A stretch of 64,000 bases of DNA from Bryobacterales bacterium (lineage in GTDB: Bacteria; Acidobacteriota; Terriglobia; Bryobacterales; Bryobacteraceae). The DNA is taken from the NCBI GenBank assembly GCA_963772905.1, contig CAVYZD010000001.1, forward strand, positions 926,144 to 990,143. The letters run 5' to 3'. The translations under genes and the position numbers were made by a program. Under the pieces are notes generated by a model. That model was not told where the DNA came from, did not search any database, and saw only the letters and a list, made by a program, of their open reading frames with translations. Below, one piece after another: positions 10,928 through 51,153 of the stretch (positions within the stretch are counted from its first letter, which is position 1; the number at the start of each line of letters is the position of its first letter).

Positions 10928-12160
10928 GTGATACCATCCCAATCAGACCAGAAAACAGCGCCGGAGACGCCGGAAAGGACATACGTGCGTCAACTTGGCT
11001 GTGTGCGGAAGGCCAAGCACGGCCGGATATGGGTATGGATTGGAAAGTACTACGAGAATGGAAGGGGGCGATCAAAAGTGCTGGGGCACTGTGCGCAGAT
11101 GACGGAAGGCGGTGCCCGGGCGAGGCTGCAGGAGTTGCTGAACCCGATCAACGAGACTGCCGGATTCGGGCAGACGTTGCCAACCGATTTCAAAGAATAC
11201 GTTACGAATGTGTTCTTGCCGCAGCGCCGCAAGAAATGGAAGGACCCATCAGACAAGACAACGACGGAACGTTTTAGAGCACATCTGATTCCGGCATTTC
11301 GATGGCCGGCAATTGCGGGAGCTAACGCGCAACCGCTTACAGCGTTTCCTCGACAGCAAGACCAAAGATGGTCTTTCAAAAAGCGTTGTGAGCCATCTTC
11401 GTTGGGATCTAAACGCCGTCTTTAAAAAGGAGGCCAACGATGGTCTGATTCAAGGCAATCCAGCGGGTTCATTGGTCACGCCCAAGGAGGCAAGGACGTT
11501 CGAGAAACGGAAAATGACAAGGGAGGAAATCCATCTCGCGTTATCTGTACTGGATCTACGGGAACGGACCGTCTTCTTACTCGCAGTTCTAGTCGGGCTT
11601 CGCCCCGGTGAAATTTTTGCTCTACGCTGGGGCCGGGTTGGGCCGGATATGGTCAACGTCATGGAACGGGTATATCGCCGCTTGCCCAGTCATCCCAAGT
11701 CAGAACGAGGGAAACGGCTAGCTGCGGTTCCGCCCGGCCTGGCGAGTGACCCCGCGGAATGGCGCGATGTTGCCCTCGATCTCAGTCCAGAGTCGCTGGT
11801 ATTTCCGTCGGAGCGTGGGACGTTCATGTCTCGCGACAATTTTTTGCGACGGAACATTCACGACAAACTGGAGAAGGTTGGCCTAGGCTGGGTGAACTTC
11901 CAGGTGTTGCGCAGGACGCAGGCCAGTCTCGGACACAAAGAGGGTGTCGATCCGAAGGTCGCAGCGGATCAGCGGGGCCATGCAATCGGCGTAGCCATTG
12001 ACACGTATACGACGACTGATTTGGAATCCCGGCACCAAGCAGTTACGACTCTTGAACAGGCGCTGAAGTTGAAGGAAGGGGTTCGATCAGTTTGGGATCG
12101 GTATTGCCCCCGTTGTTGGCGTAGAGCCTGTGCGGCTCGACACATAGGTAACAGAACGTA
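10928..12160 (+). pseudogene. tyrosine integrase, frameshifted and lacking its own stop
   Basis: The N-terminal part (10928-~11296) and the catalytic part (from ~11297: ...GLRPGEIFALRWGR...VLRRTQASL...DQRGHAIGVAIDTYT) are in different frames. One extra base lies near 11293-11300. It is paralogous to integrase 13572-14657. The frame continues without a stop into the IS481 element. Confidence 0.8.
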
Positions 12161-13421
12161 CCGGAGACATGGGTTACACTTTTTCCCCTGGAAGGGGGCG
12201 GGAAGTGGGATGCCATGGAAGGAAAGTTCTGTTATGGATGAACGCATACGATTCGTGATTCGGCTCAAAGACGGCGAGAGCATGGCCGCGCTGTGCCGCG
12301 AGTTTCAGATCTCCCGCAAAACCGGCTACAAGATCTTCGAGCGTTATGAGGAATGCGGACTGGAGGGGCTCACGGATCGTGCCAGGCGCCCCCACCGCTA
12401 CGCCAACCAACTGCCCGAGCAAATCGAAGCGGCCATCGTAGCGGCCAGGCGCGAGAAACCGAACTGGGGCGCCCGCAAGATCCGGGAGCGCCTTCTTCGA
12501 CGACTGCCGAGCGAAGTGAAAGTCCCAGCTCGCAGCACCATTCACGCCATCCTGGATCGTCATGGACTGGTGACTCGCGCCAGGCGATCACGCACCCGCA
12601 CCGAAGGAACGCCGCTGTCAGAGGGCGCCAGCCCGAACTGCCCTGTGGTGTGCTGACTACAAGGGAGAGTTCATGCTCGGCGATCGGCGCTACTGTTATC
12701 CGCTCACGGTCACCGATCATGCTTCGCGCTATCTGCTGCTGTGCGAAGCCATGGAATCGAATGCCGAAAAGACCGCTTTTACGGCCTTTGAGCGCTTGTT
12801 CAAGGAGCGCGGTTTGCCGCAGGCCATCCGCTCCGATAACGGCGTTCCCTTCGCTTCGCCCAATGGGCTTTTCAATCTATCCAGACTTTCGGTCTGGTGG
12901 TTGCGGCTCGGCATCAGCATCGAACGCATCCGGCCTGGTCATCCGCAGCAGAACGGCCGTCACGAACGCATGCATCTGACGCTCAAGAAGGAAGCCACGC
13001 GCCCCGCCGGCGCCAATCTGCTTCAACAGCAAGCCAAGTTCGACGCCTTCATCGAGGAGTTCAACAACGAACGCCCGCACGAAGCCCTCGACATGAAATG
13101 TCCGGCGGAGGTCTACTCTTCTTCCTGCCGCCCTTACCAGGGTATTCAGGAACTCAACTACCCGTTTCACGACAAGACGGTCGTCGTCACCAACTGCGGC
13201 CGCCTGTGTCTGTACCGCAAGAAGATCAACTTAAGCACTTGTTTGGCCGGCCAGGCGGTTGGCATCAAGGAAGTCGACGACGGCATCTGGCTCGTCAGCT
13301 TCATGGATTACGATCTCGGTTATATCGATCTGGAGGAAAAAACTCTGCAGCCCCTCAACAACCCCTTCGGGCCAAAAGTGTTACCTATGTCTTAGGAACA
13401 TTCTGTTACCCATGTCTCCGG
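12161..13421 (+). mobile_element. IS481-family insertion sequence
   Basis: Terminal inverted repeats CCGGAGACATGGGTTACA (12161-12178) and its reverse complement at 13404-13421 match 17/18. They enclose a DDE transposase. No obvious target-site duplication is present. Confidence 0.7.
12210..13395 (+). pseudogene. IS481-family transposase, split into two frames
   Basis: The N-terminal HTH part (ERIRFVIRLKDGESMAALCREFQISRKTGYKIFERY...) ends at 12656. The DDE/rve part (LWCADYKGEFMLGDRRYCYPLTVTDHASRY...SDNGVPF...NGRHERMH) is in another frame. The single-base shift lies near 12635-12650. Confidence 0.75.
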
Positions 13422-13438: not shown

Positions 13439-13513
<75 letters not shown>

Positions 13514-13571: not shown

Positions 13572-14657
13572 CTATTGTATCAACAATCGCTTCTCCAGCT
13601 GATTCACGATCACCAGGCGGCTCTCGACCGGCGAATGCGTGTAGACGTTCTGGTTCACGTCGAGCGTATGGCCCAGCTGGTCCGCCACAAGTTTGCCGTC
13701 GACGCCGATGGTTTTCATCAGTGTCGCGTGAGTTCGCCGCATCACCTGAAACGTCGCCCAATCAAGGCCAACCTTTTTAAGAGCCGGGCGCGCAGTGCGA
13801 TGCCACCAGTTGTCCTTTGAAAGCGGCGTCATCCGCTCCGAAGGAAAGACCCAGGCATCATCGCGCGTATCGACCGCGCGCATACGCCACGCCTCGATCT
13901 CCGCAAGCAACCCTTCGGACAGCGCCGCCTGCCGGCAGGAATTGTCGGTCTTCGGGGTGTCGATCTTGCGCCGGTAGACCCGCTGCCGGATGTCAGCATG
14001 CGTTGCCGTGAGCCTGCCCCAGGTGAGAGCGAAGATTTCGCCGGGGCGCATACCGGCCAGCAAGGCGAGTTTTACAATAAGCCGCTCCCGCTGTCCGAGG
14101 GCGCCGAAGCAGGTTTGAACCTCCTTCATCGTCATGGCGCGATGAACGGCTTTCTTGGCTTCCTTCGGCGTGAACAGAAGCAACGCGGGGTTGAGCCTGA
14201 TATGGCCCTCGGCTACCGCCATGTCGAAAATCTGCTTCAAATCCCATCTAAGATGATCGACGACGGAGAAGGAGAGGGACTTTGCTTTCGCATCGAGCAG
14301 GTCCTGCAGCCCGTCGCGGCGGAACCCCGGAAGCTCGCCGTCCCTGAACGCTCCCACGAGATGTACCGATACACGGTTCACGTTGTTCTCCCGTGTCGAG
14401 TCTTTCCATTTCCGGGTGTAATAGGGGAAGTACGCATTCTCGACGAACTCACCGAACTTCAGGACTCTGTTCGGCTCATGTTTGGCGCGTTCCTCCGCGA
14501 TGATCCTGGAGACAGTTTCCCGCGCCTCGCCTTTCGTCATCTCCTTGATCAGGCCGATGACACGGCTTTTCTTCCTACCGTCCTCGTACCAGAGGCCAAT
14601 CCACCGGCCCCGTTGTTTCCGGACACCTCCCATTGAGTGCCGCTGACGCATAATCAT
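13572..14657 (-). CDS. tyrosine-type site-specific integrase
   Basis: 361-aa ORF with R (GMRPGEIFAL), HxxR (RRTHATL), H (LGHT) and Y (NVYTH). The true start may be the ATG at 14651, which has better spacing from AAGGAG. Confidence 0.9.
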   Translation of the reverse strand: MIMRQRHSMGGVRKQRGRWIGLWYEDGRKKSRVIGLIKEMTKGEARETVSRIIAEERAKHEPNRVLKFGEFVENAYFPYYTRKWKDSTRENNVNRVSVHLVGAFRDGELPGFRRDGLQDLLDAKAKSLSFSVVDHLRWDLKQIFDMAVAEGHIRLNPALLLFTPKEAKKAVHRAMTMKEVQTCFGALGQRERLIVKLALLAGMRPGEIFALTWGRLTATHADIRQRVYRRKIDTPKTDNSCRQAALSEGLLAEIEAWRMRAVDTRDDAWVFPSERMTPLSKDNWWHRTARPALKKVGLDWATFQVMRRTHATLMKTIGVDGKLVADQLGHTLDVNQNVYTHSPVESRLVIVNQLEKRLLIQ

Positions 14658-21111: not shown

Positions 21112-22155
21112 ATGCCTCCCGATAAGCGCAAATCCATTACGCCGGCTACCGAGCCGTCATCAGAGTGGATGCCATATGTGCATGCCTGGAAAACGGAGAC
21201 AATCGAGTGGCTTGAGATACATCTTCCAGGAGTAGAAGGCCCAAACGCGCAGGGGCGGATCGATGGGCGTACCCTTATCGTGGAGGGCCACCGCAGAATT
21301 CCAACTCAGAACGCGCTCGTTCCTTTTTCCCTGAGCCTCAACCTGCCATCAACCTACAGCATCGAAAGCCGTGAGGCTCGTTTCGACAGAGACGTTCTAA
21401 CGATCAAATTCCTCAAGGCGACCGCAGTTCGCAAAGACGGCGTTCTGACCCTTTCTTTCCCCGAAACCCCCGATCCCGCCAAGCCGTCGTTTCGCGAGGC
21501 GTTGCGCTCCTTGGGCGCTCGCGTACCGGACCCCGCCGGCGTGCCTTTTTCCATTGACATCGTTAGGCCTACTTCGGCTACGATCCCTCAACCCGAACAT
21601 GAATTCACCCATGAAACGAAGATGGTTGAGGACGATTACGCACTCCAGCTAGGCCGCATACTTGCGCAGAAGGCGATTACAAAGGCAGGAAAGCGCTATT
21701 TCCCGCTTTCCCTCGCTGCGCCACTGGCGCAAGCACCCGAAACGACACTTCGCGACTGGATCACCAAGAAAACCAAATTCGCCGGGCGAACGATTCAGAC
21801 GCATACCTCGCCGACCGCCGGAATCTATATCAGCGAAGAATCCGTCAACAGAATGGCGAACCGTTTCATCAAATGGCCATCGCAAGAACCGGCCGGGCGG
21901 GTCACGATTGGCGAAACTGACGACCAAAGCGGCTATATCGGACTTACAGACGCCGCCCGTATGATCGGAGTTGAACGTCATACGATCTGGCGCTGGGCTA
22001 CAAAGGGAACTTCCCCGACTGAAAACACACTCGATATCATCAAATGTCCGGCCTCGGAACAGTTCTATATCAGCGAAAAGGACGTCGAGAGTTTAAAGAG
22101 CGTCGTTCCGCGCAGCGGGCTTAGACGAGGCCCCCGGTCACATCTCACTCCGTAA
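21112..22155 (+). CDS. hypothetical protein: Hsp20/ACD-like N-domain plus two tandem excisionase-type HTH repeats
   Basis: The N-terminus IEWLEIHLPGVEGPNAQGRIDGRTLIVEGHRR ... ARFDRDVLTIKF resembles alpha-crystallin blocks. TTLRDWITKK...GIYISEESVNRM and HTIWRWATKG...QFYISEKDVESL are an internal duplication. Confidence 0.6.
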   Translation: MPPDKRKSITPATEPSSEWMPYVHAWKTETIEWLEIHLPGVEGPNAQGRIDGRTLIVEGHRRIPTQNALVPFSLSLNLPSTYSIESREARFDRDVLTIKFLKATAVRKDGVLTLSFPETPDPAKPSFREALRSLGARVPDPAGVPFSIDIVRPTSATIPQPEHEFTHETKMVEDDYALQLGRILAQKAITKAGKRYFPLSLAAPLAQAPETTLRDWITKKTKFAGRTIQTHTSPTAGIYISEESVNRMANRFIKWPSQEPAGRVTIGETDDQSGYIGLTDAARMIGVERHTIWRWATKGTSPTENTLDIIKCPASEQFYISEKDVESLKSVVPRSGLRRGPRSHLTP

Positions 22156-22501
22156 CTTCGCCAGCTGGCGGCTCTCTCCGGTATTTGCTCCCTTCCGTAG
22201 CAGTTTGGTAGTATTAAGGTGTGGGCAGCATCGATCCATTCGCCCGCACTCCGAGGCGTCAGCCCGACACGCTAGCCGGCACCTTCGCCGTCCTTGATAC
22301 CAGCGCGTCGCCATGGACAAGCACAGTTCCTTCAACCGTTACGCTCGAAGGCAAGCCATCACCGATCAGGTTTCGGGATCGCCGGGTATGTTGGTCAGTC
22401 CCGGTGTTTTCTCCTTCCTGTTTTCAGTGCTGCATAATCGCAAGCCTGACCGATGCAAGCCGTAGCGCGTCCGGCGTGCCTGTCAAAAGGTGGTTTCTCG
22501 C

Positions 22502-22543
22502 AATTTTTCCTTGCATGCGCACCGCTGCGCGGACGGAAAAATT
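22502..22543 (+). promoter_or_regulatory. hairpin H0 upstream of ORF 22649
   Basis: AATTTTTCC (22502-22510) pairs perfectly with GGAAAAATT (22535-22543). The 24-nt loop contains CCGCTGCGC. Confidence 0.5.
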
Positions 22544-22648
22544 CCTGCGATACCGCTGCGCGCTTTTGACATTCCCGCCTCGGGAGACGCGCTTCACGGA
22601 ATGCATCGGCTGCGATCATGCAGCCCACTTTCAACAAAGGAGAACACC

Positions 22649-22915
22649 ATGTCAGACAACAAACAACCCGCAGCAAAGATCAACCTTCATCCGGTTTCGG
22701 CCGCCATCTGGCGAAACGAGAACCAGAAGGGAGTCTTCTACTCCGTCACCTTCGAACGCAGCTACAAGGATGACGACGGCAAATGGCACCGCTCCGGCAG
22801 CTTCAACGCGAGCGATCTGCTTCTGCTGGCGAAAGTCGCCGATCTGGCCCACAGCGAGATTTACAAGCTCCGGGCCGGCGACCGTAATTCGCAGACCGAA
22901 GACGAGGCCGCCTGA
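22649..22915 (+). CDS. small hypothetical protein, possibly PC4/YdbC-like ssDNA-binding fold
   Basis: ATG lies after AAAGGAGA. The 88-aa product reads ...AAIWRNENQKGVFYSVTFERSYKDDDGKWHRSGSFNASDLLLLAKV. The giant track ORF 22221-23960 is not credible. Confidence 0.6.
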   Translation: MSDNKQPAAKINLHPVSAAIWRNENQKGVFYSVTFERSYKDDDGKWHRSGSFNASDLLLLAKVADLAHSEIYKLRAGDRNSQTEDEAA

Positions 22916-22924
22916 CCTCGCGGG

Positions 22925-22962
22925 GCAGGGCGCTCTTCATCGGGCGCTCTGCTCCTTTTTCT
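22925..22962 (+). terminator. putative intrinsic terminator
   Basis: GCAGGGCGC..(loop)..GGCGCTCTGC forms a stem with one mismatch, followed by TCCTTTTTCT. It lies directly after the stop at 22915. Confidence 0.45.
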
Positions 22963-22992
22963 CCATCAACCAGCGACAGCAAGGAAAGCGCA

Positions 22993-23178
22993 ATGCAAAT
23001 CAATTTAAAATGGCAGGTCCTCGACGACGACCGCATCGCCCTAATTTTCGACAAGACGGCATGGGAGCCGTTTCGAGCTCTGGCAACCGAACGCGGAATC
23101 CTCGCAACCGAGATGATCGCCGATGCCGTTGCACGACTCCTCGGCCCGCATGTAGCGAGACGCGCCAACGACGGTTGA
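22993..23178 (+). CDS. small hypothetical protein
   Basis: 61-aa ORF with AAGGAAAG 5 nt upstream of the ATG. Confidence 0.4.
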   Translation: MQINLKWQVLDDDRIALIFDKTAWEPFRALATERGILATEMIADAVARLLGPHVARRANDG

Positions 23179-23376
23179 CGAGCATACGATCGCGGTGTGC
23201 TTTTCGCAGCACCCCGCTTTCTTTTCTATTGTCCAAAGCCGCGTCTGCGCCGGGCGATTCTCAGACCCTTGGCCGTCAATCTGTTTTCGACAAGACTTCT
23301 CGCACCAGAATAAAACCGGACCGCCCGCGGCGTACGAAAATCACGCATAGCTTGCGCGATTTTAGTCCAAGCAGAC

Positions 23377-23507
23377 AATTTTTCCGCTTTCTGATCTGGA
23401 CATGGCAGCCCTGCGCTGTCGCTACGGGCGTGTCCATGTCCAGACACGTTATCGCGCCGCATATCCGTGGCGGCGCGATGTTGCCCTTCGGGGAAACGAA
23501 AAAATTC
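23377..23507 (+). promoter_or_regulatory. branched hairpin element H1 upstream of ORF 23595
   Basis: Perfect 11-bp stem 23395-23405/23434-23444 and perfect 10-bp stem 23451-23460/23470-23479. The outer arms AATTTTTCC (23377-23385) and CGAAAAAATTC (23497-23507) pair partially. The 3' box CCCTTCGGGGAAACGAAAAAATTCT is shared with H2 and H4. Confidence 0.55.
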
Positions 23508-23594
23508 TCCGCCTGCGCCTCGGACGGTCCGGTTTTTTTCTGGCCCCACGTTCTGGCGCAATCCCGCGCCAGCGGAACCCAACGGAGAACAATC

Positions 23595-23960
23595 ATGGGG
23601 CTCGATATGTATGCCTTCGTCACGCGCAAAGCCATTCCGCCAGTCGATTTCGACGACCCGGAAGATGCTTTCGAAATCTTTTACTGGCGCAAACACCCGA
23701 ACCTCCACGGCTGGATGGAACGCGTTTACCGGAACAAGGGTGGTCTCGACGAGGTTTTTAATCTTGTTCCTGTCCGCCTTGACCAGTCTGATCTGGATGC
23801 GCTTGAGCAGACCGTCAATACAGGCTCACTCCCGGTTACCGCCGGCTTCTTCTTCGGGGTGTCATCCCCCGATGACAAGAAGGACGATCTTGAGTTTCTC
23901 CGCTTGGCTCGACAAGCCATTAAGGAGGGGAAGCAGGTGTATTACATAACATGGTGGTGA
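23595..23960 (+). CDS. conserved-looking hypothetical protein (121 aa)
   Basis: ATG lies after ACGGAGA. The product is MGLDMYAFVTRK...FYWRKHPNLHGWMERVY...ITWW. This is the only protein-like part of track ORF 22221-23960. Confidence 0.65.
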   Translation: MGLDMYAFVTRKAIPPVDFDDPEDAFEIFYWRKHPNLHGWMERVYRNKGGLDEVFNLVPVRLDQSDLDALEQTVNTGSLPVTAGFFFGVSSPDDKKDDLEFLRLARQAIKEGKQVYYITWW

Positions 23961-24038
23961 CACACATTGCCGGATGTGGAGATGCCCTCGGGCGTCTCCA
24001 CTTCAACCGAGGCCGCGTTTGCCGCGCCGCGCGGACCA

Positions 24039-24240
24039 CAAGGGCAAACTCTCCGCTCCGTCCTCGCGCGTTGCACGCGCTCCAACTCCGCTGCGACTTT
24101 GCGCTTGGGCGAATTTTACGCTGGCGCTTCGTTTCGGCCTTGACCGCCCTCCGCTGCGCTACGTGCCGTCAAGACCCAAGCCCTTCGGGGAAACGAAAAA
24201 TTCTTCCGCGCCCCGGCGTGCCGCCGGGCCTTGAGGCCTC
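24039..24240 (+). repeat. ~200-bp intergenic repeat, copy A (contains hairpin H2 24111-24203)
   Basis: About four-fifths identical by eye to 25398-25602. Inner stem GGCCTTGAC (24136-24144) pairs with GTCAAGACC (24168-24176). CGTTTC pairs with GAAACG, and GAATTTT with AAAAATTC. Confidence 0.7.
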
Positions 24241-24469
24241 CGGTGCCGATTGCGAACGGACCTTTTGACGGCTTGCGGAGTTTATGTTAACGATGTCCAA
24301 ACCCAACATTATCGAAAATAGGCTCACTGTCTTTTCCTGCGGGTCGTGCGTCGGTCTCGTCTTTAACGAGGTCGTCCCAAGCTCGTGCGGGGGAAGGGGC
24401 TTTTTTCTTTGGGTCGCAACACGGCGGATCTCCACATGGTGGGTGGCCGCTTTCAGCAGGAGCCCGGAA

Positions 24470-24715
24470 ATGCCCCAGAACGAAAACGTTCTTACCCGCC
24501 GAAACCGCTCAAGGAAGATTCACGGGATAAGCACCACGCCTCCCCATCCCTTGGCATGGGCCATAACCGGAAACCAGGTGTATCCGATCAATGACCTTCG
24601 CCAGCATTCGCTTCGCGATTGCTGGTGCCGCCCGATCGACGATGAGGGCGTGTCCGTGCATAACAGCCTTGATGGCCGCGAAATTTATGAGCGTGGCGAG
24701 AGAAAACTTTCTTAG
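24470..24715 (+). CDS. small hypothetical protein (81 aa)
   Basis: ATG lies 7 nt after AGGAG. The product reads ...KIHGISTTPPHPLAWAITGNQVYPINDLRQHSLRDCWCRPIDDEGVSVHNSLDGREIYERGE, a pattern I associate with small conjugative-element proteins. Confidence 0.6.
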   Translation: MPQNENVLTRRNRSRKIHGISTTPPHPLAWAITGNQVYPINDLRQHSLRDCWCRPIDDEGVSVHNSLDGREIYERGERKLS

Positions 24716-24798
24716 TCGGCCGGCGGCGGATCGTCGCATTAGCCCAGCACCATTCGCTGCTACCGCAGCAGTTGGCAGGGGACTCCGTCCCCTCGGCT

Positions 24799-24888
24799 GT
24801 CAACCAAAAAGAAAACTGAGACACACATCGTTGCTTTTTGCTGATAGGCGCAAAAAGACAAACGATGTTGCTCACTTTTTGGTTGGAC
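24799..24888 (+). promoter_or_regulatory. long imperfect hairpin H3 upstream of ORF 24967
   Basis: Outer stem 24799-24811/24875-24888 has one bulge. Inner stem 24826-24841/24850-24867 has two bulged A residues. The loop is 7-8 nt. Confidence 0.55.
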
Positions 24889-24916
24889 AGCCACACCCCC
24901 GTTCTCGGCGAAGCCA

Positions 24917-24940
24917 GGGTTGCAGCAGCTGCTGCAACCC
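24917..24940. promoter_or_regulatory. perfect 24-bp palindrome GGGTTGCAGCAGCTGCTGCAACCC
   Basis: Read directly from the sequence. It ends 26 nt upstream of the ATG at 24967. Confidence 0.6.
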
Positions 24941-24966
24941 AAAACTAACGAGAAAGGAAGGACAAC

Positions 24967-25248
24967 ATGCCAAGAGGAAGAAAACCATCAACCGAGCCGT
25001 TTCGCCGCAGTCAGGTCGTGTCGCCGGTTCCCTCCGAGAGGAGATACGGCAGGCCGCCAAAGGCCGTAAAGAAGAGTTTCGACATCTACGTCAGCGATAT
25101 CGAAACCGGCGAGGAGACGCTGGCTTTAACGGTGTTCGCGGTCGATCAGCGAAACGCCACCCAGACGGCCAAAAAACTGCTCCAATCCTCGCCGCTGATG
25201 CGCAAGATTACCTATGCCGCGTACAGCGCCGTGGAGGTCAAGGAATGA
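24967..25248 (+). CDS. small hypothetical protein (93 aa)
   Basis: ATG lies after GAAAGGAAGG. The N-terminus is basic. Confidence 0.5.
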   Translation: MPRGRKPSTEPFRRSQVVSPVPSERRYGRPPKAVKKSFDIYVSDIETGEETLALTVFAVDQRNATQTAKKLLQSSPLMRKITYAAYSAVEVKE

Positions 25249-25397
25249 GAAGGCACTACCGGCTGGTATCCCACAAAGAAAGTGAGGCCCAACCGAAATG
25301 ATGAGCAGGGGGGACGCGCGTCCGGGCGCGTCCCTTTCATTGGCGGCGAAGGCGCTGTACCAAGCGGTCGGCAGCTCGTCCTTCCCGGCGCGGGCCT

Positions 25398-25602
25398 CAA
25401 GGGCAAACTCTCCGCTGCGTTGTCGCGCATTTTATGCGCTCCACCTCCGCTTCGACTTTGCTCACGTCAGAAGTTTTCCGCTGTCGCTTCGTTTCGGCCT
25501 TGACGGCTCTACGCTCCGCTCCGTTCCGTCAAGACCCAAGCCCTTTGGGGAAACGAAAAAATTCTTCCGTGGCCCGACATGCTGCCGGGCCTTGAAGCCT
25601 CA
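25398..25602 (+). repeat. ~200-bp intergenic repeat, copy B (contains hairpin H4 25470-25567)
   Basis: It has the same stems as copy A (25496-25504/25528-25536 and so on), but the loop sequence differs. Confidence 0.7.
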
Positions 25603-25894
25603 GCTTTGCATTTCTTTGGTCTCTGACCGTATCGGCACGGGTGCATATTCGTGCATGCAGCCAATCGATCAGGCCTTCCACGGAAACATTCAAAGCGGTG
25701 AGACCCACTCGTTTCCGAAGTTATCCACATGGTCGGCAGCGCTCGCAGCTTACAACGCGCGCTTCCATTTTTTCTCCCTATTGCCCGCGGCTTTTTCGCC
25801 GAATGCGCATGAGTGTCAGGGTGAGTACGTTGCTATCGGCTTCCGAAGTGCGGGACGCGAAGCGGCCCGCACTTCACATCGTTCATGGAAACGA

Positions 25895-26050
25895 CGTTCC
25901 GCAAGCGGAACGCTGAAAAAAAGAATTGCAGCGGCACTGATTCTCCGATTCAAGGAACGGTGTAGCAGCCGGATAGTGCGGAGTGACAAGGTATGTGTTT
26001 GTCGGACCGCGCAGCCTCCGGCAGCCCGGTCCCAAACACCCTTGCAAGGG
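25895..26050. other. candidate oriT region (position-based only)
   Basis: Non-coding stretch immediately upstream of mobC and the relaxase gene. It contains palindromes CGTTCCGC-AA-GCGGAACG (25895-25912) and CCCTTGCAAGGG (26039-26050). No known nic consensus was recognised. Confidence 0.25.
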
Positions 26051-26097
26051 GGCTCCGCCCCCGTTGACCCCCGTGAAGATCGTTCCGAAAGGACCCG

Positions 26098-26478
26098 ATG
26101 AACGGCAGGCCAGAAACCAAACGGAGCAGCGGCAGCGAAAATCGTAAGCGTTACCCGCGCGTGTACTCCCGTGTGACTGTCGCTGAGCGCGACCAGATCA
26201 TAATGGACGCCGAAGCGCATGGATTTACGGTCGGCTCCTATCTGCGCTGGTTAGCGCTTGACCACCCGCAGACCCGTCCCGTGCGCCGGCCACTCCCAGA
26301 AGAGAAACTGCTCGCCCAAATCAAGGGCGGTGCGGGTAAGGTGGACGGCAACATCGCGCAGCTGGTCAGGCGTGCCAATCGCGGTGAGATTGTGGATGTT
26401 GAGGAACTGGCCGACGCCGCGAAGGCGGTCAGTGATTTTTACCGAGCCGCCCTCGAACTCCTGAAAGGCGGCCATTAA
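26098..26478 (+). CDS. mobC: MobC-family relaxosome accessory protein
   Basis: 126 aa. GKVDGNIAQLVRRANRGE matches the MobC GNNLNQIAR-type block. It overlaps the relaxase start by 1 nt. Confidence 0.8.
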   Translation: MNGRPETKRSSGSENRKRYPRVYSRVTVAERDQIIMDAEAHGFTVGSYLRWLALDHPQTRPVRRPLPEEKLLAQIKGGAGKVDGNIAQLVRRANRGEIVDVEELADAAKAVSDFYRAALELLKGGH

Positions 26479-28343
26479 TGTATATCAAAGGCGGCTCCCG
26501 CCGCAGCATCGGCTTCTGGTCCAAGCATCTTCAGGACCGGGAGCAGAACCTCCGCGTCGATATCATCGAGAGGCGCGGCCTGGCCGCGACCGATCTAAAG
26601 GACATGATGCTGGAAATGCAGGAGGACGCCCGCTTCACTCGCTGCGAAAACTTTATGTATATCGCCGCCTTCAATCCCTGCCCGCACGAGCAGCTGACAG
26701 AGGAGCAGTGGGAGAAGGCCTATGAGATCTTCGAGAAGCACCGGGGCATCCCGGCGGGCCAGCAGCGCATCGTCATCGAGCATGAGAAGGAAGGGCGCAT
26801 ACACCGGCATGTCGTCTGGAACCGGGTCGATCTCGAAAACATGCGCGCTTTCCGCGATGCCTGGAATTCGGAGGTATGCGCCGAGGCAAAAGTGGAGATC
26901 GAGCAGGAGCTGAAACTGGAACGGACCCCCGGTCTCCGCGAGCGGCAGCCGGGGGACCCTCGCCCCCTGAAGGCCTTCGAGATGCATCGCGGCATGAAGA
27001 GCGGCCTCGATCCTCGCCTCATCACGGCCGAAGTTACGCAGATCTACCGAGACAGCCGTAATGGTGCGGATTTTGTGGAAGGCCTGGTCCAGCACGGCTA
27101 TCAGCTCGCCGAAGGCCGGCGGGGTCTTTGCATTCTCGACGGTGCCGGGCATGAGCACAGCCTCGCGCGACGCATCGAAGGCGTGAATGCCAAAGAGCTG
27201 CGCGCATTCATGCAAGGGGTCGATCTCGGGAACCTTCCTACGGTCGAGCAGGCGAGGGCCCAGTTCCGGGATCGAAAGATCAGCGACCTCGAAGCCGACC
27301 GCGACACGGTCCGGCACGAGATCGTATGGCTGGAGGCCCTCGCCAAAGCCGCGATCGAGAAGGAAAAGATCGAGCAACGGTTCGTAGAACCGAGGCCGGA
27401 GAGAAACAAAGGTCAGGACGATAGGGAAAAAATCTGGCCGATTGAGCCTCCTAAGCCGGAGCGGATCAGGACCTCGCCGGAGTTTCATTTCGGGGACGCG
27501 GCAAGGGAGGCCACGCGAGGCGAGCCGCAGCCGCCGATGCCGGAAAAGCTGAGAGGGACGCCGGCGGAGATCTGGAACGCTTACCATCAGAGCGATAATG
27601 CGCGCGCTTTCGCCGCCGCGCTCGACGAGCAGGGGATTTCGCTTGCCGTTGTCACGAAATCCGAAGCCGACCGCAGCCATAGAAATGCTGAATTCGCGCG
27701 AGCCGCCGGCAATTATGCGCCCAGGTTCAAAGAGGGGGAGATCGTCGCCATTGCGGAGCCCGGCCTCACCTACCGCGACGGCAAGATTGCGGAGCCGCGC
27801 GTCTATCGCCTCGATAAATTCACGACCGGCGAGGAGCCCCGGAAAGTCGAGGCCTTCCTGAAACCGCTCGATCGCTCGCAGCTTGAGGGCATCGAGGCGA
27901 CCCAGGAGAAGATCAAGGCCCGCGTCGAGCAGCGCATCATCGAAGTCCAGGCCTTCCGGGATCTCCTCCGCGACGTGAAGAACGACGAGCGGATGAAACA
28001 AGCGCAAGCGCCCGGACGTACGCAACCGATAGGGGCTCTAAAGAGAGGCGCCAGGTCAGTCGTGACAAAAGCGCTTGCGGCGCCCAGGCTAGCAGAAAAG
28101 CCCGTCGGATCGGCCTTCAAATTGTTGGGCGCCGCCGGAAAACTCGCCGACGGCCTATTCGATCTGATCGATCCGGTGCTGACGCCGGCGCTGAAACGCG
28201 AAAAAGAAATCATGGCGCGCACGCGCGAAGCCGAAGCCGAAAACACGACGGACCTCCAGAAATACGCAGCCGAGCGACGACGGCAAGAGGAGGAGCGTCC
28301 TAAAGAAAGGGAGCCCGACCGGGACCGGGGCCGAGAACGGTGA
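26478..28343 (+). CDS. relaxase/mobilisation nuclease (MobA/VirD2-type, MOBQ-like)
   Basis: The N-terminal relaxase domain carries the His cluster IEHEKEGRIHRHVVWNRVD. The C-terminus is long, charged and low-complexity. Confidence 0.9.
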   Translation: MYIKGGSRRSIGFWSKHLQDREQNLRVDIIERRGLAATDLKDMMLEMQEDARFTRCENFMYIAAFNPCPHEQLTEEQWEKAYEIFEKHRGIPAGQQRIVIEHEKEGRIHRHVVWNRVDLENMRAFRDAWNSEVCAEAKVEIEQELKLERTPGLRERQPGDPRPLKAFEMHRGMKSGLDPRLITAEVTQIYRDSRNGADFVEGLVQHGYQLAEGRRGLCILDGAGHEHSLARRIEGVNAKELRAFMQGVDLGNLPTVEQARAQFRDRKISDLEADRDTVRHEIVWLEALAKAAIEKEKIEQRFVEPRPERNKGQDDREKIWPIEPPKPERIRTSPEFHFGDAAREATRGEPQPPMPEKLRGTPAEIWNAYHQSDNARAFAAALDEQGISLAVVTKSEADRSHRNAEFARAAGNYAPRFKEGEIVAIAEPGLTYRDGKIAEPRVYRLDKFTTGEEPRKVEAFLKPLDRSQLEGIEATQEKIKARVEQRIIEVQAFRDLLRDVKNDERMKQAQAPGRTQPIGALKRGARSVVTKALAAPRLAEKPVGSAFKLLGAAGKLADGLFDLIDPVLTPALKREKEIMARTREAEAENTTDLQKYAAERRRQEEERPKEREPDRDRGRER

Positions 28344-29526: not shown

Positions 29527-32500
29527 TTGTTTGTTCCCCGTCCGCGCCTTGGCCGGCATTCCAGACGTACCTCGAAGACGAGCTTTCCTTGCATTCTGCG
29601 CTTTGCTTTTCTCGGCGTCATGGCCGCGGTTGCGCTCACTCTGCCCCAGCAGGCGAAGGCACAGGCATCGCTGACGCAGATCACGCTCACAGGAACAGTG
29701 GCCTCTGGCACCGACAGCACAGGTTCGGCGAATGTGTTCGGCGTCGGTACCAATCTTGCGACTTTAGATTTCACCCTGATCTACACCTACGATCCGTCGC
29801 AGGGAACGCCAGGTTTCCTGGACTGCTCCGGCGGCAGCCCGATCTACTACACCGATATCAGGAACAGCGGCTCTGCCTATCCAGGCACAGCAACGCTGCA
29901 GATCGGCGGCGGCACGCCATATCCGTTCGGTGGTGCCGGCGAGAGTAGTGTCACGTCATGGGCACTTCGCTACGCGCCAGTCTGCGGCAGTGTGGCAAGC
30001 GAGGCGGGGGCAGGGGTTACGACAAACTTCAGCGGGGCTTTCGGCGGCGGTGCGAGCGTAGGCCCCGGAGCCGTCAGTCCGGATATTTATCCGCCGTCGG
30101 GTGGCCCACCCCTGAGCTCGAATCCTGACTGGAGTTCCGACGTCAATCCCGCCGTCGCGACAGATAGCAGCGTTCACATTAGCTTCAACGTCGGTATTAC
30201 GGGGGCGGAGACCAAGACCGCGAGCGGCGATCTTAGTCCAACGACGTTCCTGGTGACGCAGCTCGGGCTGGACATCAATGCCCTGACCGACGGATCGGGT
30301 TGCGGCTGCGATGGACCATACAGCGGGAATCCCGTTGAATGGATGTATATTCAGGCTCACGAAGCTGGCCAGTCTTTCGGCAAGGACTATACCGACCTCA
30401 TAGGCGATCCGGTCAATCCCGCGACGGGAAACACCTTCGAGGCCTCGACCGATTACACCACAGCGGGGCCGAATGTCCTGGCCTTCCGCCGCTACTACAA
30501 CGGCATGGCCAATCAGGTTTATATCGGCCCACCCTTCAGCGGCTATCTCGTCTCACTGGCAACGGAACTCGGTTCGAACTGGCGCTCCAATTATGACGGA
30601 TATTTGCAGATCGGTACTTCCATCGTCAGCGCTGAACGACCGGATGGAATGGTTATTCCGTTCCGCCTCAACGGCAGCACATGGACGGCTCCCGCAGGCG
30701 TAGATGCGACGCTGACTCAGGCGGGCTCGACCTGGACACTGACCCTTCCTAACGACTCCGTCGAGACCTACTCGACTGCAACGACCGCCTATGGCGAGCT
30801 GACCTCAATCCGTCTGCGCAACGGCTACACGATGTCGATGACCTATAACAGCAGCAACCAGCTCACGACTGTGACGGACAGCTACAGCCGGCAGCTGACC
30901 CTCAGCTACAGCAGCGGCCTGCTGCAATCGGTGACGACACCCGACAGCACGACCATCAATTACGGCTATACCGCGGTCACTGGCGGCAATGTCCTGAGCT
31001 CGGTTTCCTATCCAACGACGCCCGCCACCAGCCTCACCTATCAATACACATCGCCTGGCCAGCCCTTCCTGCTCACCGGCATTCAGGACGCTGCCGGGAA
31101 CCAGCTCGCGACATGGACCTATGACAGCCAGAGCCGGGCGATATCCAGCAAACGCGGCGGCTCGCTTGGCGCGGACGCGACCACCTTCACCTACAACAGC
31201 GACGGCACCGTGACAGTGACGAACGCCTTCGGGGTGGCAGATACGTATACCTACCACAAGCTGCAGGGTGTGCCGCGTCTCCTCAAGATCAGCCGCGCCG
31301 CCACGTCCACCACGGCCGCGGCGACGCGCTCTTTCGGGTACGACGCGAACGGCTACAAGACGATCCAGACGGACTGGAATGGCAACACCACCATCTATGT
31401 CAACAACACGCATGGTCTCGCGACCAGCATGACCGAAGCGGCGGGCACGACCATCGCCCGTACAACGACCACCGTTTATGACCCGACTTTTGTCCATCTG
31501 CCCGATACGATCACGATGCCGGAGCTGACGGTCGGCTTTACGTACGACAGCAACGGCAACCCCCTGACCAAAACCGAGACCGACACGACCACCACCAGCA
31601 TCCCCTACAGCACCAACGGCCAGACCCGCACGACCCAATGGACCTGGAGTTCAACCGGTGAAATGCTTACGGAGCAGCTGCCTCGCACGGACGTGACGGC
31701 GAAGACGACTTACGGTTATTCATCCGATGGAGCGCTGACCAGTGTTACCGATGCCCTGAGCAACGCGACGACCGTCACCACGCATACCGGCGGCGGAAGG
31801 CCGCTGACGGTGCAGGACCCGAACAGCGTGGTCACAGCGCTGACTTATGACGGGGGTCAGCGGGTGCTTACCAGCAGCATTGCCACGACCGGCGGTGCCT
31901 TAACCACCACCTACACTTACGACACGGCCGGCAAACTCGCGAGCGTGGAGAAGCCCGACGGCTCGACACTGAGCTATGGCTACGACGCGGCGAACCGGCT
32001 CACCTCGATCACGGACCTGTTTGGCAACAGCATCAACTACACGCTCGATCCGCTCGGTAACAAAACGCAGACGGAATGGGAGGATAGCGGCAGTACCGTG
32101 CATCGGAGCACCACGGCTACTTTCGATGCGCTCGGGCGGATGCTGACGAATGTCGGCGGCATGAGCCAGACGACAACCTTCACCTATGACAAGAACGGGA
32201 ACACCCTCACCATCAAGGACCCGGACCTCAACACCGTCACGAAAACCTATGACGCGCTGAACAGGCTCAAGACCTCCGTCGATCCCTCGCCCGGAGGCAC
32301 GACGACGCTGACCTATGACGCGCATGACCGGCCGCTCACGGTCCAGGACCCTCTCGGCCACACAACTTCCTACGTCTTTGACGGGTTCGGCGACCGCATA
32401 CAGGTCGCCAGCCCGGACAGCGGCACGGCGGTCTACTATTTCGACCCCGACAGCAACCTAACTAAGCAGGTGCTGGCAGGGTCGCTCGAAGCCGACATGA

Positions 32501-34311
32501 CGTATGACGCCGACGACCGGTTGCTGACAACCAGCTATCCCTCCGACGGCACGCTCAACGTCACGAATGCCTATGACCAGACCGGCCACGGCTACGGCAT
32601 CGGGCGGCTGACGAGCGCAACGGACAAGATCGGCAGCCTGAGCCTCACCTATGACGAGCGCGGCAATATCACTTACGAGAGCCGGGTCGCCACCGGCATC
32701 ACCACGCTGAACACGACGTATGCGTTCGACGCCGGGAACAATATCTCCAGCATCACCTATCCCTCCGGCACCGTAGTCGCCTACGGGCGGGACACGATGG
32801 GCCGGGTCACCTCTGTCACGGCGCAACCGCCGGGCTTCGGCAGCCCGAGCAACGTGGCGGTCTTGATTGCCTATGAGCCCTTCGGCCCCGTCACCGGCCT
32901 CACCTACGGCAACGGCATCACCGGCACATATTCCTACGATAACGATTACAGGACCACGTCGCGCGTCGATGCCGCCACGTCGAGCGTGATGAACCTCGCC
33001 TACACTTACGACGCCGCCGATAACGTCAAGACGATCACCGACAGCGTGAATGCAGCAAACGGCCAGACATTGACCTACGACGCCCTCAACCGCCTCAAGA
33101 CGGCCGTGAGCGGCACGGGCGGCTATGGTTCGTGGAGTTGGACGTGGGACGCCGTGCACAACGCCAAAACGCAGGTCATCGCTGGTACCACCACGACGCT
33201 CAACCAGGTTTCGGGCAGCAACAAGCTGCTGAGCATGACGACGGGATCGACGACCACGAACGTTACGAACACATCCGCCGGAAACATCAACCTTCTAAAA
33301 ATCAGCGGCACCACCGTCGAAACCCTGACATACAACCAGGCCAACGAGATGGCGAGCGCAAGCGCCTCGGGCGGCTCGGCCTCCTATGCCTACGACCTGC
33401 TCGGACGGCGTATCGAGAAATCGCCATCGGGCGGGAACACGATTGTGCTCCAGTATGCGGGCCTGAGCCCGAGCACCTTGCTTGCTGAGGACGACCGGCA
33501 TGGTAACGCGGCGGATTACATCTACCTCAACGGTGTCCCCATCAGCGAAGTGAACCCCGGAACCGGCGCGCTCTACTACACGCACACCGACACTCTCGGC
33601 ACGCCGCAGGCTCTGACGAACGGATCAGGCACAGCGGTGTGGAACGCGACGTACAAGCCGTTCGGCAACACGCAAACCACGGCGGGCAGCGTTATCCAGC
33701 ACCTCCGCCTCCCTGGCCAGTACTACGATTCCGAGACCGGCTATCACGCCAACGGGTACAGGGTCTATGATCCCTCATCGACCCGCTACGTTGAAAGCGA
33801 CCCCATCGGCCTCGCCGGAGGCATCAACACTTATCAATATGTCAGAGCCAACCCCTTCAAAAACATCGACCCGATAGGGTTGAAGGAATTGACCGTCAGC
33901 GTCGGTGACATCCTCGGGCCGGTTGGGGTAACTGCCTATCTTGGGTACAACAGCGGCCAATGGAGTTACGGCGGCTATATCGGGGTTGGCACAGGTTGGT
34001 CGATCAACTATGACCCGAACGATTCAGGTTGTCACGAAGCAGGCTATCAGTGGGGCTGGCAGGGCAACGGTCAGCTTGCGTACTATGGCCCTAACATAAA
34101 CGCTTCTGTATTTTGGGGAGCCCCCGGTTACTATTCATTCGGCCAAATCTCTGCCGGAATTCCCGGAACACCGCTCAGTTGGAGTATTGGGGAAGAGAAT
34201 GGAAACTTACTTCCCCCGTCGCCCTTCCCCACCGTAGGCATTGGAGATTCAACGACCTTCGGTTATGGTGGAGTTCATTACCTTCCCCGAGGTCAAGAAT
34301 TGCTGCCATGA
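29527..34311 (+). CDS. RHS/YD-repeat polymorphic toxin with unassigned C-terminal domain
   Basis: Dozens of YD repeats (YTYD..G.L, Y.YDA.NRL). The RHS core ends with YYDSETGYHANGYRVYDPSSTRYVESDPIGLAGGINTYQYVRANPFKNIDPIGL, followed by a ~140-aa Gly/aromatic-rich tail. The N-terminus is signal-like and the start is uncertain. Confidence 0.9.
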   Translation: MFVPRPRLGRHSRRTSKTSFPCILRFAFLGVMAAVALTLPQQAKAQASLTQITLTGTVASGTDSTGSANVFGVGTNLATLDFTLIYTYDPSQGTPGFLDCSGGSPIYYTDIRNSGSAYPGTATLQIGGGTPYPFGGAGESSVTSWALRYAPVCGSVASEAGAGVTTNFSGAFGGGASVGPGAVSPDIYPPSGGPPLSSNPDWSSDVNPAVATDSSVHISFNVGITGAETKTASGDLSPTTFLVTQLGLDINALTDGSGCGCDGPYSGNPVEWMYIQAHEAGQSFGKDYTDLIGDPVNPATGNTFEASTDYTTAGPNVLAFRRYYNGMANQVYIGPPFSGYLVSLATELGSNWRSNYDGYLQIGTSIVSAERPDGMVIPFRLNGSTWTAPAGVDATLTQAGSTWTLTLPNDSVETYSTATTAYGELTSIRLRNGYTMSMTYNSSNQLTTVTDSYSRQLTLSYSSGLLQSVTTPDSTTINYGYTAVTGGNVLSSVSYPTTPATSLTYQYTSPGQPFLLTGIQDAAGNQLATWTYDSQSRAISSKRGGSLGADATTFTYNSDGTVTVTNAFGVADTYTYHKLQGVPRLLKISRAATSTTAAATRSFGYDANGYKTIQTDWNGNTTIYVNNTHGLATSMTEAAGTTIARTTTTVYDPTFVHLPDTITMPELTVGFTYDSNGNPLTKTETDTTTTSIPYSTNGQTRTTQWTWSSTGEMLTEQLPRTDVTAKTTYGYSSDGALTSVTDALSNATTVTTHTGGGRPLTVQDPNSVVTALTYDGGQRVLTSSIATTGGALTTTYTYDTAGKLASVEKPDGSTLSYGYDAANRLTSITDLFGNSINYTLDPLGNKTQTEWEDSGSTVHRSTTATFDALGRMLTNVGGMSQTTTFTYDKNGNTLTIKDPDLNTVTKTYDALNRLKTSVDPSPGGTTTLTYDAHDRPLTVQDPLGHTTSYVFDGFGDRIQVASPDSGTAVYYFDPDSNLTKQVLAGSLEADMTYDADDRLLTTSYPSDGTLNVTNAYDQTGHGYGIGRLTSATDKIGSLSLTYDERGNITYESRVATGITTLNTTYAFDAGNNISSITYPSGTVVAYGRDTMGRVTSVTAQPPGFGSPSNVAVLIAYEPFGPVTGLTYGNGITGTYSYDNDYRTTSRVDAATSSVMNLAYTYDAADNVKTITDSVNAANGQTLTYDALNRLKTAVSGTGGYGSWSWTWDAVHNAKTQVIAGTTTTLNQVSGSNKLLSMTTGSTTTNVTNTSAGNINLLKISGTTVETLTYNQANEMASASASGGSASYAYDLLGRRIEKSPSGGNTIVLQYAGLSPSTLLAEDDRHGNAADYIYLNGVPISEVNPGTGALYYTHTDTLGTPQALTNGSGTAVWNATYKPFGNTQTTAGSVIQHLRLPGQYYDSETGYHANGYRVYDPSSTRYVESDPIGLAGGINTYQYVRANPFKNIDPIGLKELTVSVGDILGPVGVTAYLGYNSGQWSYGGYIGVGTGWSINYDPNDSGCHEAGYQWGWQGNGQLAYYGPNINASVFWGAPGYYSFGQISAGIPGTPLSWSIGEENGNLLPPSPFPTVGIGDSTTFGYGGVHYLPRGQELLP

Positions 34312-51052: not shown

Positions 51053-51153
51053 TGACCTGCCTCGGTTTTCTCTACCAAAGATAATTGAGACGCTTCCGTC
51101 TAATTTAACTCCTCTTCTGCCATCCCGTCGGAGCCGCCCGTCGCAATCACCTC

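Follow-up and report, generated by a model that had tools for sequence, protein, structure and literature searches.

Here we describe a family of large structured DNA elements in a stretch of 64,000 nucleotides (nt) from a Bryobacterales bacterium (contig CAVYZD010000001.1, positions 926,144 to 990,143 of the forward strand), which is referred to as the window. The elements, H0 to H4, lie at 22.4-25.6 kb among five small plus-strand open reading frames (ORF1 to ORF5) and ahead of the genes for a NikA-like ribbon-helix-helix (RHH) protein and a MobA/VirD2-type relaxase. The existence of the structured-DNA family is well supported, whereas its function is a proposal only. With a probability of roughly 0.5, we propose that the block of small genes represents the leading region of an integrative mobilizable element (IME) of Acidobacteriota, linked to tRNA-Gly, and that its large hairpins are signals on the transferred single strand which start early RNA synthesis, acting as promoters. 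In function, the elements would most likely be analogues of the Frpo/ssi-type single-stranded promoters. To our knowledge, single-stranded promoters have been shown by experiment only in IncF and IncI plasmids of enterobacteria. The present locus bears on how the establishment and anti-defence genes of other conjugative and mobilizable elements may be expressed ahead of the copying of the incoming strand.

Homologues of the elements were searched with nhmmer, and about 30 homologous elements were found in all; the loci concerned carry L numbers here. H0 recurs in L004, L005, L006, L007, L014, L022, L024/25 and L027/28 and in elements that have ORF1 only. Branched elements of the H1 type (class A) are present in L004 (two copies), L007, L010, L013, L014, L017, L019 and L022, elements of the H2/H4 type (class B) in L004, L014, L018 and L022, and H3 homologues in L004, L005, L010, L018, L022 and L026. 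Among the loci that could be oriented by their relaxase gene, every match lies at most ~5 kb upstream of it, in one orientation, and none lies downstream. Conservation of the elements beside relaxase modules elsewhere, on which the preliminary description depended, is thereby established. The same holds for the direction of the small genes, which were said to point toward the origin of transfer (oriT): from H0 up to the oriT-like region, each gene has the direction of the NikA-relaxase pair, without exception (100%) in the window and all related loci.

The alignments reveal strong compensatory changes. In H0 (11 sequences, 67 pairs), 95.4% of the cells are paired and 20 pairs carry double changes, as compared to 8.5±1.8 in shuffled alignments (0/500 as high) and 3-8 in slid controls. 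Class A (9 sequences, 60 pairs, 95.2% of cells paired) likewise has 20 double-change pairs, well above the 8.8±1.9 of shuffled alignments (0/500 as high) and the 1-6 of slid controls. Ten double-change pairs are found in class B (6 sequences, 70 pairs), and in H3 compensatory stem changes were seen by eye. The hairpin structures are real and under selection, class B included despite its unremarkable stability in the window.

Several elements turned out to be larger than was first thought. The 9-bp stem at 22502-22543 and the perfect stems at 23377-23507 exist as described, but they are merely the apex of the full H0 hairpin and the core of the full H1 element (Table 1). Folded as minus-strand DNA, full H0 (22414-22634) reaches -67.4 kcal/mol (z -7.5 against dinucleotide shuffles). 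Full H1 (23296-23560) reaches -87.2 kcal/mol on the minus and -75.0 kcal/mol on the plus strand (z -8.7). The bulged hairpin H3 at 24799-24888 has the stem ascribed to it, with z scores of -7 to -9, and the palindrome behind it is perfect over its 24 bp; in L004, a different palindrome occupies the equivalent position. H2 and H4 do lie inside repeats, which are direct and 80-90% identical. The expectation that the hairpins are more stable than shuffled sequence holds for H0, H1 and H3; it fails for H2 (z -0.4 on the minus, 0.0 on the plus strand) and is marginal for H4 (z -3.6 and -2.3). A GC-corrected sliding fold scan of the whole window gave its top outliers at 22401, 23321, 24721 and 25841, with one comparable site elsewhere, at 51081. 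This site (~51081-51300, between two minus-strand ORFs) folds with -65.9 kcal/mol per 220 nt and a GC-corrected z of -5.1.

The elements are not ordinary intrinsic terminators. A terminator scan found no site at H0, H2, H3 or H4 and, inside the elements, a single weak 5-bp hairpin (23520-23532), followed by the T run in the lower stem of H1. At the gathering threshold, Rfam 15 matched tRNA-Gly alone in the window, and nothing with E < 0.9 was obtained in 22000-26500; a match to CPEB3 at permissive threshold was set aside as chance.

Concerning the strand that folds, the evidence favours minus-strand DNA, which is the template for the small genes. When folded with DNA parameters, the minus strand comes out more stable for 10 of 11 H0 elements, all 10 of class A, all 6 of class B and 6 of 7 H3 elements. 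As a positive control, the transferred strands (T strands) of known ColIb-P9 and F Frpo/ssi elements (sequences from PMC11541004) exceed their complements in stability by 4-17 kcal/mol. Since the energy test is partly confounded by composition (the window baseline of the strand difference is -1.3±3.9), we relied on wobble and mismatch counts and on loop types instead. Helix-internal G·T pairs outnumber A·C 1x1 mismatches by 65 to 10 on the minus strand, whereas the plus-strand counts are 22 to 29. Aligned class A elements have ~31 G·U cells over 16 columns and 2 A·C cells. The excess is weaker in H0, with ~18 to 7 outside helix 1 plus two conserved wobble positions within it. Moreover, C-GNA-G mini-hairpins with a stem of at least 3 bp occur 31 times on the minus strand of 28 elements and once on the plus strand. 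Their N varies (GAA, GCA, GTA, GGA), and one copy is exactly GCGAAGC. In the block of the window itself, 8 such hairpins are found on the minus and 2 on the plus strand, and the background outside the block is 0.23-0.40 per kb. The corresponding plus-strand RNA loop, C(UUCG)G, fits just the commonest variant (11 cUNCGg versus 31 cGNAg). Known Frpo T strands likewise carry GAA, GAAA or GTAA mini-hairpins. d(GNA) loops closed by C-G form exceptionally stable DNA hairpins that bind single-strand-binding protein (SSB) poorly; such loops are part of N4 promoters, of RSF1010 ssiA and of the complementary-strand origin of phage G4 (PMC13037366, PMC3201870). Wobble counts and loop asymmetry, together with the energies, therefore favour a fold of minus-strand DNA.

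The minus strand is probably also the strand that is transferred. Upstream of nikA/mobC, the oriT-like blocks of the window (Table 1) are conserved in 11 loci and are partly common to the Acidithiobacillus plasmid pTF4.1. The motif CTTGCAAGGGGGCTCCGCCCCCGTTGACCCCC (26040-26072), 5' of nikA, recurs in pTF4.1 (L052, ~240-280) and in distant MobC-relaxase modules; it is probably the oriT core. Read on the minus strand, which is complementary to the relaxase gene, the core hairpin always has a G...A loop, of which five variants occur (GGA, GAA, GGCA, GGCTA, GCGAAGC); this fits the minus strand as the folding strand at oriT. The order of small plus-strand genes, oriT-like blocks and nikA-relaxase is the same in the window and in all related loci. 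Relaxase genes are typically the last to enter (PMC11541004), leading-region genes sit on the T strand behind single-stranded DNA (ssDNA) promoters (PMC11541004, PMC9849209, PMC12672017), and in the IncI1 NikA/NikB arrangement the leading region is on the far side of oriT (PMC12672017). Because of the relaxase-last rule, the IncI1 analogy and the strand bias of the oriT loop, we infer that the minus strand is transferred and that the relaxase gene enters last. Inspection of the oriT-like region by eye did not identify the nick site, and a literature search on the consensus string gave nothing useful. Minus-strand CACTATCCGG, which resembles the IncP-type nick motif ATCCTG, was considered and dropped, as it is not conserved in distant relatives. 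In gene orientation toward oriT and relaxase, and in the folding of the template strand, the Frpo-type geometry put forward in the preliminary description holds in the window and in the related loci.

Boxes of a promoter, which were expected to be reconstituted in the stems, are readable in H0; in H1, H2, H3 and H4 none could be assigned by a relaxed scan of both strands. On the minus-strand 3' arm of H0, the AT-rich apex (GGAAAAATT) is followed after ~14 nt by TTGACA and after another 16-17 nt by a TAnnnT-like box. Among the 11 H0 homologues the first box is TTGACA or one of the variants TGGACA, TCGACA, TTGACC and TTGATC. The second box, 16-17 nt on, is TAGGGT, TACGGC, CAGAAT or CAGGAT, with an invariant A at position 2. 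The plus-strand right arm also contains TTGACA (22566-22571), ~21 nt from the equivalent second box, which is the wrong spacing. A polymerase bound at the minus-strand boxes would read the 5' arm as template, into ORF1. RNA started in this way would have a ~43-nt leader with a small hairpin and a Shine-Dalgarno sequence.

Class A elements are built differently. The outer stem of H1 carries a conserved unpaired A (minus-strand TATTCT, plus-strand 23307-23312). Throughout class A a purine·A mismatch in the lower stem leaves the invariant A of TAYTCT (TATTTT in L053) unpaired, ~55 nt from the ATG. A side hairpin of H1, P0 (23337-23363), adjoins the minus-strand box TTGGAC (plus-strand 23365-23370), and in the class A box GCTTGRAC the invariant Ts pair with G or A. 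Further parts are an AT-rich P1, a C-GAA-G mini-hairpin (23484-23492) and two inner hairpins. A plus-strand promoter using TAAAAC at the left base of class A was rejected, as the upstream -35 is not conserved and is plausible in 2/9 only. Class A architecture is also met outside the IME family. In RepA_C plasmid-like contigs (L053-L060) an ORF3 homologue stands directly before NikA-relaxase, and the 300 nt upstream of it show this architecture, with -93 kcal/mol on the minus and -79 kcal/mol on the plus strand. These small replicons have the order coupling protein gene (minus strand), class A hairpin, ORF3 homologue, NikA/MobC, relaxase; therefore the module occurs on a plasmid backbone besides integrative elements. 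In the Bryobacteraceae relative L004 (5938-7250, plus strand), a gene of ~437 aa is found behind a class A element in the place of ORF3, and an ORF3-like gene behind the second class A element adjoins oriT. Both elements and genes seem to be shuffled in modular fashion.

H1, H2 and H4 were said to share a box, and indeed CCCTTYGGGGAAACGAAAAA has three copies, at 23484, 24181 and 25541, all on the plus strand. There are no others in the 64 kb, and none are expected by chance. In public data the box is found in related elements plus a few chance matches: of 12 metagenome matches six (L011, L012, L015, L016, L020, L021) lie in unrelated contexts and are attributed to chance, and seven are counted as homologous elements. 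Behind H2, a conserved stretch (TTTGACGGCTTGCGGAGTTTATGTTAACGA; 24284-24340, plus strand) is followed by a possible short ORF (MLTxxKPNIxEN...). It is kept in L004 (7594-7650), where the ORF is out of frame with ORF4, and could be a leader peptide, a promoter or neither.

The five small plus-strand ORFs starting at 22649, 22993, 23595, 24470 and 24967 agree with independent gene calls on an identical metagenomic contig. A structured element precedes most of them, as was claimed for all; the exception is ORF2, before which there is solely the terminator-like hairpin of ORF1. Terminator-like hairpins are also found after other small ORFs, the terminator scan giving sites after ORF1 and ORF5 (22922, 25316). 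At the end of the block, homologues have other hairpins than the inverted repeat of the window, then T-rich sequence. ORF1 and ORF3 to ORF5 are each a unit of element, ribosome-binding site with ORF, and terminator-like hairpin, and the small genes look like separate transcription units. With a strict sigma-70 scan, no canonical double-strand promoter was detected on either strand of 22100-26200.

ORF1 belongs to a family of 399 homologues (70-94% identity) sited just upstream of MobC/NikA-relaxase. In simpler elements with other relaxase types, ORF1 stands by itself between H0, a structured spacer of ~400 nt, and the MobC/NikA-relaxase pair. Its AlphaFold2 model (pLDDT 88.9) has four strands and then a long helix. 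This is the topology of PC4, Whirly and PUR proteins, with which the PC4-like ssDNA-binding fold first suggested for ORF1 is compatible. The fold matches are not significant: best Foldseek E values were 0.13 (PDB) and 0.02 (viral), with Pur-alpha, the PC4 homologue 5a4o and phage SSB/P15 among the non-significant matches only, and Pfam, its PC4 profile included, gave no match. ORF3 is a member of a very large, unnamed family (5183 homologues) and also matches a PHROG of unknown function; its AlphaFold2 model (pLDDT 92) has no fold match in the PDB. For ORF1 and ORF3, no significant functional assignment was obtained from Pfam, NCBIfam, PHROGs, PADLOC, a PDB sequence search or Foldseek, and the family searches gave no match for ORF2. 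No small ORF matched Pfam, NCBIfam or PADLOC, and none was linked to anti-defence, for which no dedicated profile set was searched. An anti-defence role of these genes is a guess.

If the hairpins are promoters on the transferred strand, early expression might proceed as follows. The minus strand enters the recipient, each element folds, and host RNA polymerase would be recruited to it. RNA synthesis would start near the hairpin base, ~45-50 nt upstream of the start codon, and produce a short leader with a small hairpin and a Shine-Dalgarno sequence. The monocistronic small genes would thus be expressed early and transiently, before the complementary strand is made, and the same RNAs could double as primers for its synthesis. 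What the sequences show is the structure of the elements, its conservation and covariation, its orientation with respect to the relaxase and its strand bias; recruitment of RNA polymerase, the timing of expression and the polarity of transfer are inferred. A bolder form of this proposal, which we regard as tentative and rather doubtful, is a new modular class of branched ssDNA promoters. In such promoters a side hairpin or a junction would present the -35 (TTGACA/TGGACA), TAYTYT would serve as the -10 with its A(-11) kept unpaired by a conserved purine·A mismatch, and GNA mini-hairpins would exclude SSB. Shuffled as modules, they might induce leading genes zygotically on mobilizable islands and small plasmids in Acidobacteriota, far from the enterobacterial plasmids to which the known ssDNA promoters belong. 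If this were true, establishment or anti-defence would be the task of ORF1 and of the 5000-member ORF3 family.

Several points weigh against promoters on the transferred strand. With nhmmer the elements have no match to known Frpo/ssi, and the best blastn match (29 nt, E 0.013) lies inside ORF3; the homology criterion was BLAST E <= 1e-6, as in PMC11541004. Canonical boxes at workable spacing exist in H0 alone, and the sigma-70 consensus may not be that of Acidobacteriota. Class A, class B and H3 have no canonical -35/-10 pair on either strand, and in class A TTGRAC and TAYTCT are 19 nt apart even if P0 is looped out, with 12 nt in L007 and ~23 nt in L053. Against dinucleotide shuffles H2 has no excess stability and H4 a marginal one, and no gene follows H4. 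Of the energy difference between minus and plus strand, ~3-6 kcal/mol are compositional and present in shuffled sequences too. Much of the G·T excess of H0 comes from two conserved positions that overlap the plus-strand CATAAT box. Inspection by eye gave no nick site that would fix the polarity of transfer. Finally, there is a conserved sigma-70-like plus-strand promoter at the left edge of H0, and H0 could therefore be transcribed as an RNA leader.

These points bear on the rival explanations as well. A serious rival, even if an unlikely one, is that the elements are priming signals of the ssi/sso type on the transferred strand, used by the DUF3991/Toprim protein or a host primase for complementary-strand synthesis rather than for mRNA; in a related reading they are replication roadblocks. 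The DUF3991/Toprim protein is always encoded by the element family, C-GAA-G mini-hairpins, which bind SSB poorly, characterise RSF1010 ssiA and the complementary-strand origin of G4 (PMC13037366), and P0 together with the conserved sequences beside it (GCTTGRAC ... CGTAC) resembles a hairpin recognised by a primase. The missing boxes in most elements and the lack of a gene behind H4 also fit priming, and an ssDNA promoter of F has been found to block complementary-strand synthesis as well (bioRxiv 10.64898/2026.01.09.698686). For priming, however, there would be no need of a separate element before each gene with constant spacing to the start codon. All sites are in the first ~3.5 kb to enter, from where primers would extend just toward the nearby 5' end, the primase gene is at the opposite end of the element, and H0 has good -35/-10-like boxes. 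The two roles are not exclusive, Frpo having originally been described as doing both. We judge it improbable that the hairpins act instead as RNA structures in long 5' leaders of plus-strand mRNAs made from double-strand promoters, where they would control stability, processing or translation. The left-edge promoter of H0 speaks for such leaders, as it is kept in most homologues and scores 8-9 of 12 in most of the 11. Besides, most copies of the mini-hairpin read C(UUCG)G on the plus strand, a very stable RNA tetraloop, and the stems fold as plus strand with similar z-scores. Yet the wobbles favour the minus strand overall and in class A, and the GCA, GTA and GGA loops, which on the minus strand still obey the GNA rule of DNA, no longer read UUCG on the plus strand. 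Class A elements have no conserved plus-strand -35 upstream, Rfam has no match, and a start after CATAAT would leave the left half of H0 helix 1 untranscribed, although this helix is conserved as a pair.

Two further explanations would remove the elements from the incoming strand. It is very improbable that the plus strand is transferred with the relaxase gene first, so that the minus-strand structures act in the donor or in replication of the excised circle. Some relaxase families, e.g. the Rep-like MOBT of ICEBs1, do send the relaxase gene first, inspection by eye gave no nick site, and both flanks of the inverted repeat in the oriT core are conserved. The relaxase encoded here is of the MobA/VirD2 HUH type with a NikA-like partner, a class in which the relaxase gene is typically last (PMC11541004). 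Moreover, the oriT core loop keeps its G...A rule on the minus strand in all five variants, and the leading-side genes and structures are all polarised for this strand. Least probable of all is a role in duplex DNA, as palindromic operators, divergent promoters or selfish repeats unconnected with transfer. Minus-strand TTGACA-N16-TAGGGT could be an ordinary leftward promoter, and to the left of H0 in L024 and L027 there are genes on the minus strand; TTGAC...GTCAA inverted repeats resemble operator half-sites, and H2 and H4 are repeats. In most loci, however, no leftward gene adjoins H0. Compensatory changes keep ~200 nt paired while the sequence shifts, for which a duplex operator has no need, and the strand asymmetries of wobbles and GNA loops are meaningless in duplex DNA. 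Also against a role in duplex DNA, the box is confined in the 64 kb to the three elements and in public data, a few chance matches apart, to related ones.

Table 1. Positions of the structured elements, small genes and accompanying features in the window
Feature	Position	Strand	Description
tRNA-Gly(CCC)	13439-13513	-	Rfam match
Tyrosine integrase	13572-14657	-	adjoins tRNA-Gly(CCC), facing the 5' side of the tRNA
Candidate double-strand promoter, left edge of H0	22409-22438	+	TTCTCC-N18-CATAAT; TTGCCT-N17-CATAAT in most homologues
H0	22429-22624	-	~200-nt imperfect hairpin 5' of ORF1; AT-rich apex stem 22502-22510 / 22535-22543
Promoter-like boxes, 3' arm of H0	22459-22486	-	TTGACA (22486..22481), 16-nt spacer, TACGGC (22464..22459)
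ORF1	22649-22915	+	88 aa
Intrinsic-terminator-like hairpin	22922-22955	+	after ORF1; 14-bp stem, then TTTTTCT
ORF2	22993-23178	+	61 aa; without structured element of its own
H1 (class A, branched)	23302-23546	-	~245 nt, closed by arms 23305-23332 / 23516-23543
ORF3	23595-23960	+	121 aa
H2 (class B, four-way junction)	24029-24240	-	copy 1 of ~210-bp repeat
ORF4	24470-24715	+	81 aa; PHROG 2864 (function unknown), E 7e-11
H3	24795-24892	-	98-nt bulged hairpin, z -8.9
Perfect 24-bp palindrome	24917-24940		between H3 and the ribosome-binding site of ORF5
ORF5	24967-25248	+	93 aa; no family match
H4 (class B)	25388-25601	-	copy 2 of ~210-bp repeat; no gene behind
14-bp inverted repeat	25845-25875	+	end of the small-gene block, read as terminator-like
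oriT-like conserved blocks	25937-26072		CTGATTCTCCGATTCA (25937-25952), TGACAAGGTATGTGTTTGTC (25984-26003), CCAAACACCCTTGCAAGGGGGCTCCGCCCCCGTTGACCCCC (26032-26072)
NikA-like RHH gene	26098-26478	+	Pfam PF21983, E 5e-9
MobA/VirD2-type relaxase gene	26478-28343	+	Pfam PF03432, E 4.5e-15

The carrier of the block can be described from its gene order. Beyond the tRNA, the minus strand encodes the tyrosine integrase, a DUF3991/Toprim primase-like protein, which is encoded throughout the element family, and a TraG/VirD4-type coupling protein. The plus strand then has two larger genes, the five small ORFs, the NikA-like RHH protein, the relaxase and an RHS toxin. The same gene order is found in metagenomic contigs. 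No type IV secretion system turned up in the related loci, the window itself not having been searched for one, and the element is therefore read as an IME. No direct repeat of the tRNA region of at least 14 nt (att) is present elsewhere in the window, so the ends of the element are undefined. A near-identity search of PLSDB plasmids gave no match. The relaxase matches NCBIfam only weakly, as TraI/MobA(P), and its N-terminus has no homologue among PDB sequences. This N-terminus is 38% identical to the counterpart on pTF4.1, a plasmid typed MOBP by MOB-suite. Relatives of the relaxase are found in metagenome-assembled genomes of Bryobacteraceae, Bryobacterales and Terriglobia (Acidobacteriota). 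Just left of the tRNA (11313-13395, plus strand), two transposase-like ORFs (integrase and IS481-type helix-turn-helix domains; rve core) look like a separate insertion. On the 3' side of the relaxase, a gene for a 1594-aa RHS-repeat toxin (29527-34311, plus strand) follows; similar RHS genes stand behind the relaxase in L008, L022, L026 and L027 and therefore look like conserved cargo.

The locus and its homologues add a covariation-backed, sequence-unrelated family from a distant soil phylum, carried on mobilizable islands, to the known structured single-strand signals. Its strand-specific fold, the GNA mini-hairpins, the unpaired A in a -10-like box and the fixed distance to the start codon are testable features. 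The two conserved small protein families that are first in line at oriT are candidates for establishment functions.

Among known systems, the class 1 Frpo/ssi elements of F and ColIb-P9 (Frpo1/2, ssi1-3) are the closest in arrangement. They too are long imperfect hairpins of the transferred strand (200-330 nt) before leading genes that point to oriT, with an AT-rich palindromic apex as in H0 and a T strand more stable than its complement. H0 shares with them -35/-10-like boxes on the 3' arm, and in its simplest relatives the element precedes the first-entering gene, as Frpo precedes ssb. Unlike the elements of the window, which have no sequence homology with them and are carried by an IME of Acidobacteriota, they belong to enterobacterial plasmids. 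Most elements of the window are multi-branched, with three- or four-way junctions and side hairpins, lack readable boxes and are known here from sequence alone. The ssDNA promoters assigned to classes 2 and 3 (ssp2 and the M.EcoGIX promoter; pESBL, F) offer a parallel for this diversity, since sequence-unrelated hairpin promoters share one leading region there (PMC12672017; PMC13478746; bioRxiv 10.64898/2026.01.09.698686), several classes per element and one to each operon. Such promoters have also been shown to act as roadblocks when the complementary strand is synthesized (bioRxiv 10.64898/2026.01.09.698686). They have mapped start sites and reconstituted boxes, whereas boxes are read here in H0 only.

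RSF1010 ssiA/ssiB and the origins of the phage G4 type are likewise single-strand signals, built around C-GAA-G or GCGNAGC-type mini-hairpins (PMC13037366), orientation-specific and linked to an element-encoded primase. In contrast to the elements described here, they measure 40-130 nt, serve replication priming and are placed at oriV or the origin, not one per gene; their cognate primase, RepB' or DnaG, is unrelated to the DUF3991/Toprim protein of the window element. The single-strand origins (sso) of rolling-circle plasmids and sso1 of ICEBs1 are highly structured, strand-specific non-coding elements which recruit host RNA polymerase to ssDNA (PMC4595007). They differ in number (one or two per element) and in host (Firmicutes), have no tie to gene starts and are unrelated in sequence. 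The elements of the window share with these origins the structured, strand-specific design, and with the Frpo/ssi class the position before leading genes that point to oriT.

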